DNA of 64,000 nt from contig OY969414.1 in NCBI GenBank assembly GCA_963699155.1, positions 971,757 through 1,035,756 of the forward strand, in the 5' to 3' direction. The stretch is from an uncultured Chlamydiales bacterium (GTDB lineage: Bacteria; Chlamydiota; Chlamydiia; Chlamydiales; JAAKFR01). Both the position numbers and the translations under genes were made by a program. The notes under the pieces were generated by a model. The model had not been told where the DNA came from and did not search any database. It was given only the letters and a program-made list of their open reading frames with translations. Numbering within the stretch: position 1 is the stretch's first letter; every line of letters starts with the position of its first letter. Shown here one piece after another: positions 3,202 to 6,200 of this stretch.

Positions 3202-6200
3202 TTATTGACAGCTTTCACAGGTTCCATCCAAGTTACACGCAATCGGCTTCTCCTCTCTCTGAACGACGATGCGTGCAGAGGCCGATTCGCTCTTCATCCA
3301 GCGGGGCTGTAGACCCCTCTTATTGATATCTGTGGTCGATTTCTCTATATGGGTTGCCCCTAAAGCGCGCAAGTAGTAGGTTGTCTTTAACCCCTTTTTC
3401 CACGCCATCAGATACATCTGATTGAGCTTCTTCCCACTTGGTTCAGCAAGGTAGAGGTTGAGAGATTGCCCCATATCGATCCATTTCTGGCGTCGTTCTG
3501 CGCATTCGATGATCCAGTCGGGCTCAATTTCGAAGGCGGTCAAAAAGAGATTTTTGATCTCCTCAGGGATCCGTTCGATCTCCATGACTGACCCGTCAAA
3601 GTATTTCAGGTCATCGATCATATCGTGATCCCAGAGCCCTAGCCCTTTCAGCTTATCCACGAGCCAGGGGTTCAAGACAATGAATTCACCGGAAAGGTTC
3701 GATTTGACGAAGAGATGGTTATACATCGGTTCGATCGATTGGGTCACCCCAGTGATATTGGAAATGGTCGCTGTGGGAGCGATCGCCATCGTATTGCAGT
3801 TGCGCATCCCATGTTTTTTGATCGAATCTCTGACGGGAGTCCAATCGAGGCGGTTGCCGGTATGCAGCTCGACATACTCTTGTCCTCTCTCTTGTTTCAG
3901 CAGTTGCAGCGTATCGATCGGGAGAAGGCCACGGTGCCATTTCGAGCCTTTATAGGAGGAATAGGTGCCCCGTTCCTTGGCCAGTTCGCTCGAGGCTTGA
4001 ATGGCGTAGTAGGAGATCAGCTCCATGCTTTCGTCGGCAAATTCAACCGCTTCGTGGCTGGCATAGCTGATACCTAGTTTATAGAGAGCATCTTGGAAGC
4101 CCATAAGTCCCAATCCGATCGCACGGTGGCGCAGGTTGGCCTTTTTCGCCTCTTCGATAGGATAGAAGTTGATGTCGATCACATTGTCGAGCATCCGGAC
4201 AGCGGTGCGGATCGTTGAGGCGAGCAGTTCCCGATCGATTCCCTTCTCATTGATGTGGGCCAGCAAATTAACCGAACCCAGGTTACAGACGGCGGTCTCC
4301 TCAGCAGAGGTATTGAGCAAAATCTCGGTGCAGAGATTGGAGCTATGGACAACCCCTGCATGGTCCTGGGGAGAGCGGATATTCGAGGGATCTTTAAAAG
4401 TTATCCAGGGGTGGCCCGTTTCATAGAGCATGCCGAGCATTTTTCTCCACAAAGAGGCAGCCTCAATCTTTTTGAAAAGCTTGAGTTTTCCCTGCTCCGC
4501 CATCTTTTCATACTCGACATAGCGCTCTTCGAATGCTTTGCCATAAAGATGGTGCAGATCGGGCACATCGTTCGGACTAAAGAGCGTCCACATCCCATTC
4601 TCAACCACCCGCTTCATAAACAGATCGGGGATCCAATTGGCCGTATTCATGTCATGGGTGCGCCGTCTCTCATCTCCCGTATTTTTCCGCAGCTCCAGGA
4701 AATCCTCGATATCCAGATGCCACGTCTCCAAGTAGGCACACATTGCCCCCTTACGTTTACCGCCATTGTGGGCCAAGCCTGCCGTCGTCATATAGGACTC
4801 ATCGCCCTCTACTTTGAGGTCGCAAACGAAGGGTGTGGGAATCAGCGACCTACTTTTTTTGAGTCGGGTGAAGAGATGGTTGCCGCGCACCAGCCAATTG
4901 TATTTAGTGAGCGGCTGGCAACCGACCAATGAGGCGATCTCCTCTACAGCAGGAATGCGGACATCATAGTTCGTCGTTGTGCAATCAAACTGAGTCGTCG
5001 ATCCGTCGGATCGTTTTCCCTCATGTTGATGACGTCGGGTACGGCAATTGCCGGCAGTGGGGATTCCCAAGCGAAGACATTGGTAGCGCACGCCTTCAGC
5101 CAGCTCTCTAGAGGTATTGCAGAAGGTGATCTCCTTGTTTCGGGAAACGTTTCCATCGGTCTCCAAAAGACCTTGTAAGAGTGCCAAAGTCTGTTGACGA
5201 GGGAGATGAGCAAGCCTAGAAGCGATTCTCTTATTCCCTTTGCCATCATAAAGGTCGTCATAGTCAAAGGGAAGCGTATCTGAGCCGCTGCCAATGATAC
5301 GGCCTGTAGTGGCATCTCTGACAGCCCCTCTTCCTGCAGCCCAATGCACCTGTAGATAGTGTTCTCCTCGTCCACTTTCCCAAAAATGGATGCCTCTTTG
5401 GATTAAGTAAGAACGGACAAATTCTAGATGGTTATCTTTTGTGGGATTTCCGGAAATTCCCCACTGCATACCATCTCTAGAGAGATGGCCATCCCCAAGC
5501 AAGATACCGTAGAGGCGCGCCTCTTCGACGCCGATCTCAGCAACAGGCACAACCTCTTTGGGAATGGTCTGAGCAACATAATCTCCTCTCTGAAGTTGCC
5601 CAGCCTCGACCCATTCCCCACGGACTTTCCCCTTGTCTAGCCATTGCATGGTACGCTCTATAGCCTGTTCCATGGGCACCGAGCGGATCGCATAGAAGGG
5701 ATGTCCGGCAGTAACAGAGATCGGATCTATCGCATGTTTGAAGTCCAAAGAGACCATCGCATCGTGCTGATTGTAGAGATAGGTATCCAAAACGGTACGG
5801 TAGGTCCCGCTGGTTCCTAGAACTAAGTCACCAATTTTTACCTCTTGAATGGGTTTGATTCCCTCTGCTGTGTAGATCAATGTTTCTGGCGAAAAACATT
5901 GGTTGACCGCTACGGCGGTGTCGTTGGCAACTTTGAGGAAAGGGATAACGCCTTGGCTCCTGCCGTTGGTCCCTTTGATTTTGGAGCCGGTGGCGCGGAC
6001 GTTGGTCCAGTCGTTGCCGAGGCCGCCAGCCCATTTAGAGAGCTGGGCATCATCGGAAATCACTTTGTAGATATGGTGGAGGTCATCCATGACAGTAGAG
6101 AGATAGCAGGAGCTGAGCTGAGAGTGGGTCGTTCCTGAGTTGAAGAGAGTCGGGGTGGCTGACATGTAGAGGAACTTCGACAGCACATTGTAGAACTCGA

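Follow-up and report, generated by a model that had tools for sequence, protein, structure and literature searches.

A LAGLIDADG intein with glycine at the +1 position in a chlamydial ribonucleotide reductase, and its Gly+1 relatives across phyla and giant viruses

The window analyzed here, a 64,000-nucleotide stretch from the genome of an uncultured Chlamydiales bacterium (GenBank assembly GCA_963699155.1, contig OY969414.1, positions 971,757 to 1,035,756), carries the gene nrdA of a class I ribonucleotide reductase (RNR), interrupted by an intein whose first C-extein residue is glycine. An original prediction, made from the DNA letters, had placed a 378-residue LAGLIDADG intein with Gly at +1 at positions 4765..5898, and every observed detail of it agrees with our own reading of the DNA. 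What we observe is the anatomy of this intein, its exact insertion, a glycine shared throughout its family at the +1 position, the conservation of its catalytic residues, its mobility and the dependence of its hosts on the interrupted gene. Canonical protein splicing needs, for its second and fourth steps, the side-chain nucleophile of a Cys, Ser or Thr at +1 (PMC7765530). Canonical transesterification is impossible here because the +1 residue is Gly, which has no side-chain nucleophile, and on this point the original prediction stands. The best reading, in which we place about even confidence, is that Cys1 forms a thioester, the terminal Asn cyclizes and the freed amine of Gly+1 then joins the exteins by aminolysis; the chemical steps and the ligation yield are what we infer from the sequences. 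The reductase is probably matured by chemistry never shown for a true intein. Somewhat more tentatively, and with a slight lean toward doubt, we propose that Gly+1 inteins form a fourth mechanistic class, in which the Gly+1 amine would attack the Cys1 thioester and so mature the sole RNR of hosts across phyla and giant viruses, with the Gly-Gly site as the enabling feature. An otherwise orthodox, mobile intein family in an essential enzyme breaks the rule, stated in review (PMC7765530), that +1 is Cys, Ser or Thr.

The nrdA precursor is encoded by the longest open reading frame (ORF) across the intein, at window positions 3202..7587 on the minus strand, as are all features described below, with 1461 residues counted from the first TTG. 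Pfam recognizes in it an ATP-cone (E 1.3e-38), PF00317 (E 2.3e-24) and the RNR barrel PF02867 (E 4.2e-188), the barrel match being divided into two stretches with a LAGLIDADG_3 match falling between them. The motifs SSCYL, NLCTEI, AVCNLGS, TTYYLR and CESCQ are all present, and the exteins retain intact motifs at the catalytic cysteines, at the Tyr-Tyr pair and at the C-terminal Cys pair. With its ATP-cone, all-alpha and barrel domains, its catalytic Cys, Asn and Glu and an nrdB partner, the product is a class I RNR alpha subunit. The junctions, read from the DNA and marked here and below with a slash, are ...AVAVNQ/CFSPETLIYT...MTTAGLAHN/GGKRKGAMCAYLE; the N-extein (5899..7587) ends in AVAVNQ and the C-extein (3202..4764, stop codon included) begins with GGKRKGAMC, both also placed by alignment with an intein-less congener. 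Between them lie 1134 nucleotides encoding 378 residues, in frame and stop-free, with a GC fraction of 0.49–0.53, in keeping with that of the host gene.

The DNA reading, Pfam, homologues and a structure model together delimit, at 4765..5898, an intein composed of a HINT splicing domain and a LAGLIDADG endonuclease domain. Its N-terminal nucleophile in block A, Cys1, is encoded at 5896..5898; block B, T63-A-G-H66, was located by alignment at 5701..5712. The first LAGLIDADG motif, YGILLGDG with Asp136 (5488..5511, from alignment and DNA reading), and the second, GLLETDG with Asp248 (5152..5172, from Pfam and alignment), stand in the contexts LYGILLGDG and LLQGLLETDG and keep their acidic residues. 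Block F aligns at 4819..4824 (Cys359-Asp360; the Asp is invariant, the Cys no family trait), and block G with the cyclizing C-terminal Asn occupies 4765..4770 (His377 at 4768–4770, Asn378 at 4765–4767). Directly beyond it the DNA reads Gly+1 (GGC, 4762–4764) and Gly+2 (4759–4761), the pair at 4759..4764 belonging to loop 2 of NrdA. The splicing blocks and both LAGLIDADG motifs had been described as intact and in frame, and the location of T63/H66, Asp136, Asp248 and D360 confirms this. Pfam scores LAGLIDADG_3 (PF14528) inside the insert at 34.4 bits against a cut-off of 22.5, while the Hint families stay below cut-off (Hint_2, 22.9 bits versus 28.4). The insert and 8 flanking residues on each side, modeled with AlphaFold2 (pLDDT 89.5, pTM 0.88), are predicted to form a HINT fold in which a LAGLIDADG endonuclease domain is nested. 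The model's best Foldseek matches among solved structures are the class 1 LAGLIDADG inteins TliVMA (7qsu, E 3.7e-18), PI-SceI (1vde/1ef0), PhoVMA (7qst) and PI-PfuI (1dq3), all of the same two-domain fold (E 3.7e-18 to 2.1e-13, TM 0.5–0.65), and its nuclease half matches I-DmoI. The window intein shares with class 1 inteins Cys1, the block-B Thr-x-x-His, the block-F Asp and the terminal His-Asn, and it differs from them at +1, where they need Cys, Ser or Thr (PMC7765530) and its family has Gly.

Within specificity loop 2 of NrdA, the site of effector/substrate cross-talk in RNR, the intein separates Gln from the first Gly. In a genome of the same genus nrdA is uninterrupted and the site reads AVNQGGKRKGAMCA, its product being 84.1% identical to the window exteins over 1052 residues. 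Because this allele is uninterrupted and so similar, the alignment indicates that the insertion is exact to the codon, that nothing was gained or lost at the junction and that the expected mature bond is Gln-Gly; the proposed placement of the intein in loop 2 is upheld. The host genome, a single contig of 2,399,326 bases with a completeness score of 100%, holds no other PF02867 gene, a family that covers class I and class II RNR, and PF13597 (class III, NrdD) gave no match in the complete genome. Five cultured carriers were compared in the same way. In two free-living species, Thiothrix eikelboomii ATCC 49788 and Thiofilum flexile DSM 14609 (draft genomes, completeness not given), the intein-bearing nrdA is likewise the only PF02867 gene, and PF13597 is absent; the other three, Halomonas cerina, Giesbergeria anulus and Actinorugispora endophytica, encode a further RNR. 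Free-living bacteria need RNR. Since the only RNR gene of such hosts bears the intein and the enzyme is indispensable, the precursor must mature to a working enzyme.

Gly+1 is the rule among the relatives of this intein. A homologue search with precursor residues 545–960 listed 120 proteins of 65–100% identity, all 120 of which read NQ/CF at the N-terminal junction and 119 of which match the pattern HN/GGKRKG at the C-terminal one. A HMMER scan of the intein alone against 1.84 billion representatives gave 1945 matches at E ≤ 0.001. Within a set of 270 proteins, 187 contain a full-length intein match; they begin with Cys in 185 cases, end with His-Asn in 186 and have Gln at −1 in 180, and the +1 residue is Gly in 165, Ser in 17, Cys in 3 and Ala in 1. 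Restricting the comparison to the 180 relatives with Gln at −1, which we take as site-matched, leaves Gly+1 in 164 and Ser+1 in 16. All 28 chlamydial loci that could be parsed (29 in total) read NQ/C...HN/GGKRKGA. In a collection of species-representative genomes 477 stretches encode a relative of the intein, and in the best 80 of these, 79 of which were parsed, Cys1, His-Asn and Gly+1 are found in 79 of 79, with the glycine encoded by GGC (45), GGT (21), GGG (8) or GGA (5). The records of carriers are labeled Chlamydiota, Pseudomonadota, Verrucomicrobiota, Actinomycetota and Acidobacteriota, and cultured carriers include strains of Thiothrix, Thiofilum, Thiolinea, Halomonas, Giesbergeria, Macromonas, Simplicispira, Actinorugispora and Marinitenerispora. 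As side observations, one relative (P0173) starts with Ser1 in place of Cys1 and reads HN/GSKRKG at its C-terminal junction (Gly+1, Ser+2), and some NrdA precursors hold more than one intein: the Thiofilum flexile locus (genome G305, locus L066) has a 1731-residue frame with the barrel in three pieces, and the proteins P0084 (2297 residues) and P0065 and P0098 (about 1700 residues) each carry extra Hint Pfam families.

The same site is occupied in giant viruses. Among 71 giant-virus RNR loci of IMG/VR, 45 have an insert at this position and 21 have none, while 5 resisted parsing. After the insert the chain continues as GGG[KR]RNGS in 42 cases and as SGKRxGS in 3; the pattern used for parsing misplaced the N-terminal junction in 4 of the 45. 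Five of these viral elements (L157, L158, L161, L169 and L173) are mini-inteins of 148–177 residues at a Q/GGG site, which have lost the endonuclease and still keep C1, the T..H pair, the block-F Asp and HN/GGG. By their sequences these five are compact candidates for splicing free of a +1 nucleophile. If the aminolysis reading is true, Gly would be all that these inteins, mini-inteins of fewer than 180 residues among them, leave behind at the junction, and the 148–177-residue forms would be ready tools for scarless ligation at Gly rather than at Cys, Ser or Thr. To judge by these comparisons, the window intein is a member of a large, old, single-site family in which Gly+1 is the normal state, and the guess that similar alleles occur in other phyla proved right, Gly+1 being present in 164 of the 180 site-matched relatives, in each of the 79 parsed genome loci and in 42 of the 45 giant-virus inserts. 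A tblastn search of a phage collection with the intein returned nine records, none at the loop-2 site of NrdA; these lie in other genes (terminase, DNA polymerase, helicase) at below 28% identity, one short piece excepted.

Such breadth bears directly on the most trivial explanation, that the glycine is an error for a true AGC or TGC codon or that the gene is a pseudogene backed by another RNR, two possibilities that had been raised with the original prediction. We find no support for this explanation and consider it next to impossible. Gly+1 is spelled with four different codons, in 79 of 79 parsed loci and in every parsed chlamydial locus. A 246-nucleotide contig from the soil-metagenome run X2, which may derive from the source sample, spans 4655–4900, including the C-terminal junction, with zero differences. 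The reading frame is open, the exteins are 84% identical to those of the intein-less congener, and neither a second nrdA nor an nrdD is present in the complete genome. Three sequencing runs match the window, as low-share soil-metagenome contigs with partial coverage; no RNA run is among the sequencing runs listed for the window.

The conservation of catalytic residues was then compared between Gly+1 and Ser+1 members, using 59 and 16 representatives, respectively (15 of the 120 close homologues were kept and 105 dropped to limit redundancy). The conserved fractions (Gly+1/Ser+1) are 0.98/1.0 for Cys1, 0.86/1.0 for Thr63, 1.0/1.0 for His66 (59 of 59 and 16 of 16), 1.0/1.0 for Asp360 and 1.0/1.0 for His377-Asn378, a pattern indicating that the chemistry at both junctions is under selection. 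It leaves little room for an NrdA that works with the insert retained, the 378-residue domain being looped out of loop 2, which we hold to be very improbable. Nothing direct speaks for such an enzyme; the termini of the modeled HINT fold are close together, and insertion into a surface loop might be tolerable in principle. With the insert retained, Cys1, His66, Asp360 and His-Asn could drift, yet they are kept at about 100% even in relatives of as little as about 28% identity, and the mini-inteins keep them too; moreover, the insert would remain in the very loop that serves effector/substrate cross-talk. This option, which the original prediction had listed, is thus opposed by the conservation of residues at both junctions.

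The same alignments offer no substitute nucleophile that would be available across the Gly+1 family. Cys, Ser and Thr are absent from positions +1 to +6 in 161 of the 164 Gly+1 members. The position of the block-F Cys is taken by Tyr (54), Phe (53), Cys (30) and others (27, including 6 each of His, Ile and Val), and the neighboring Asp is the invariant residue. The cysteine at +9 in the window protein (GGKRKGAMC) is absent from many Gly+1 hosts, which read GGKRNGAFA, GGGKRKGSF, GGVRKGAVA and others, so that we rejected it as a general relay. A joining of the exteins by another nucleophile or helper, be it a relay through Cys359 or Cys+9, the side chain of Gln−1 or a host factor, accordingly strikes us as improbable. 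The window protein does have both Cys359 and Cys+9, and class 3 inteins carry the acyl group on a block-F Cys (PMC4031507). Against this, Cys359 occurs in only 30 of 164 Gly+1 members, a finding that also led us to reject, as a family nucleophile, the Cys of the block-F motif VCDL that had been suggested earlier; Cys+9 is missing from many hosts; and it is implausible that one host factor should serve chlamydiae, proteobacteria, actinomycetes and giant viruses alike. Class 3 inteins, moreover, have no Cys1 or Ser1 and an obligate Cys at block-F position 4 (WCT), whereas the window intein retains Cys1 and its block-F invariant is Asp.

Ser+1 members occupy the same loop-2 site with the same blocks (NQ/C...VHN/SGKRxGS) at 28–37% identity to the window intein; they differ in having a canonical +1 Ser, their hosts reading Q-S-G in loop 2 where those of Gly+1 members read Q-G-G. 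When the extein columns are left out of the intein tree, two changes suffice for the Gly/Ser label at +1, with the groups of Ser members nested among those with Gly. On this evidence a single intein family lives with either Gly or Ser at +1, and the two states interconvert. The strongest residue correlate of the label is position 67, directly after the block-B His (window 5698–5700), which is Pro in 53 of 59 Gly+1 and in 0 of 16 Ser+1 representatives, the latter having Asp, Gln or Glu there. Because the label changes only twice on the tree, this correlation lacks statistical power, and it may reflect shared ancestry.

The route that we favor for the window intein, aminolysis by Gly+1, would run in three steps. 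In the first, Cys1, aided by Thr63 and His66 of block B, would undergo an N–S acyl shift, so that the N-extein is held as a thioester at Gln−1. In the second, Asn378, with His377 and Asp360, would cyclize and free the C-extein with the alpha-amine of its glycine. In the third, this amine, which would occupy the usual place of the +1 residue and be kept next to the thioester by the active site of the intein and by the folded RNR barrel, would attack the thioester directly to give the native Gln-Gly peptide bond; a branched intermediate could not form at any point. The residues that are conserved suit two of the canonical steps, the first (Cys1 thioester) and the third (Asn cyclization). Gly-Gly at +1 and +2 presents the least hindered and most flexible amine, and from general chemistry it fits aminolysis that the sole nucleophile-free intein site we have seen is Gly-Gly. 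Precedent comes from the bacterial intein-like (BIL) domains of type A (e.g., PDB 2lwy), which resemble the window intein in their HINT fold, N-terminal Cys, C-terminal His-Asn and lack of a +1 nucleophile, and for which a route of thioester formation, Asn cyclization and freed-amine attack has been proposed (PMC4031507; PMC7664689); such domains can splice through attack of the freed amine on the N-terminal thioester (PMC4031507). BIL domains lack an endonuclease, and the bacterial proteins that contain them are non-conserved, with the domains lying in their variable regions (PMC7765530). In contrast, the window intein has a LAGLIDADG domain, is placed where an essential enzyme does not vary, can be excised exactly by comparison with intein-less alleles and is patchily distributed. 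A profile comparison matches it to 2lwy marginally and at the N-terminal part only (E 2.2e-4, about 70 residues), and the gp41-1 intein matches equally well. By analogy, the window intein probably works like a type A BIL domain but is not one. If the exteins are indeed joined, this would be natural and efficient thioester aminolysis in protein splicing, and a mechanistic link between inteins and BIL domains.

Several points weigh against aminolysis by Gly+1. Engineered +1 Ala or Gly mutants of ordinary inteins are as a rule reported to cleave instead of splicing. BIL domains give mainly cleavage products (PMC4031507; PMC7664689), and one review denies the type A domains any ligation (PMC7765530). 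Canonical Asn cyclization is reportedly about 200-fold faster after the branched intermediate (PMC7765530), a boost unavailable here because that intermediate cannot form. Across the 59 Gly+1 and 16 Ser+1 representatives no residue clearly adapts the Gly+1 members to aminolysis, Pro67 being the only strong correlate, and sequence evidence does not separate ligation from cleavage. The main rival draws on the same facts: hydrolysis of the Cys1 thioester and Asn cyclization without joining would leave a nicked, two-chain NrdA held together by the folded alpha/beta barrel. We regard this outcome as unlikely, though a serious contender. It predicts that Cys1, Thr/His, Asp and His-Asn are conserved, just as we see, and BIL domains without a +1 nucleophile yield mostly cleaved products (PMC4031507; PMC7664689; PMC7765530). 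In addition, the two-chain NrdA of phage Aeh1 is fully active (PMC3045599), but that protein is split elsewhere in the barrel and depends on added interaction tails described as "absolutely essential" (PMC3045599). Aeh1 differs further in that its gene is split by a free-standing endonuclease gene, with no intein, and that its specially tailed chains are separately translated (PMC3045599). In the window protein the break would sit inside specificity loop 2, beside residues that are invariant with or without the intein, and cleavage alone leaves unexplained that Gly-Gly is the sole nucleophile-free intein site seen. Were the exteins not joined, the class I RNR of many organisms would operate with a nick in the specificity loop, a point that would matter for how this loop relays allosteric signals.

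The distribution of the intein is sporadic. It is present in 41 of 300 genomes of the phylum and in 4 of 17 of the same family, with a congener lacking it, and a tree of 108 intein sequences requires 9 changes of the phylum label, against a minimum of 4. The window intein groups (support value 95) with copies from three Gammaproteobacteria metagenome-assembled genomes (loci L039, L043 and L044), to which it is closest at 70% identity, and not with the other chlamydial copies. This supported group of four suggests cross-phylum transfer or mislabeled bins; the labels of such genomes are partly inconsistent, four sets of identical rows each carrying two labels. Both the sporadic occurrence and the horizontal spread expected of inteins are thus found, and sequence comparison marks the element as a genuine intein of class 1 type, mobile and equipped with a LAGLIDADG homing endonuclease. 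In one further genome, G132, a one-contig chlamydial assembly, the sole nrdA (L028, L034–L038) falls apart into five or more frames, and stops occur in intein and exteins alike; it was considered as a natural case of a broken intein and set aside as uninformative, the frameshifts across the exteins being probably assembly indel errors.

In the literature, an NrdA intein of Azotobacter chroococcum NCIMB 8003 as well as A. vinelandii DJ has been described as LAGLIDADG-3, at residues 442–800 (PMC4465626). By that description it is of about the same size and position as the window intein, and the +1 residue goes unmentioned in the accessible part of the paper (PMC4465626). No paper describing a natural Gly+1 intein came up in a full-text literature search, whose reach left out supplements and most subscription journals. 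Two other possible precedents were discarded: the RNR intein of Aquifex, which is in R2 and has Cys+1 and so is irrelevant, and the NrdA split inteins of Dassa 2009, which lie at the thiyl-radical Cys site and not in loop 2.

As to the surroundings of the gene, the mechanical start of the nrdA ORF is a TTG lying 8 codons upstream of the start of the database copy P0001, which has 1453 residues (window 7563–7587). Upstream of nrdA a 289-residue ORF (7789–8658, minus strand) has a hydrophobic N-terminal region and no Pfam match. Just downstream, at 2131..3183, lies nrdB for the small-subunit partner (PF00268, E 2.4e-92), whose product is near-identical to PDB 1syy/4d8f over 343 residues (E 4.8e-192). 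We take 1syy to be the class Ic R2 of Chlamydia trachomatis, with Phe in place of the radical Tyr, and because the window NrdB matches it, the intein-bearing NrdA presumably pairs with a class Ic-type subunit.

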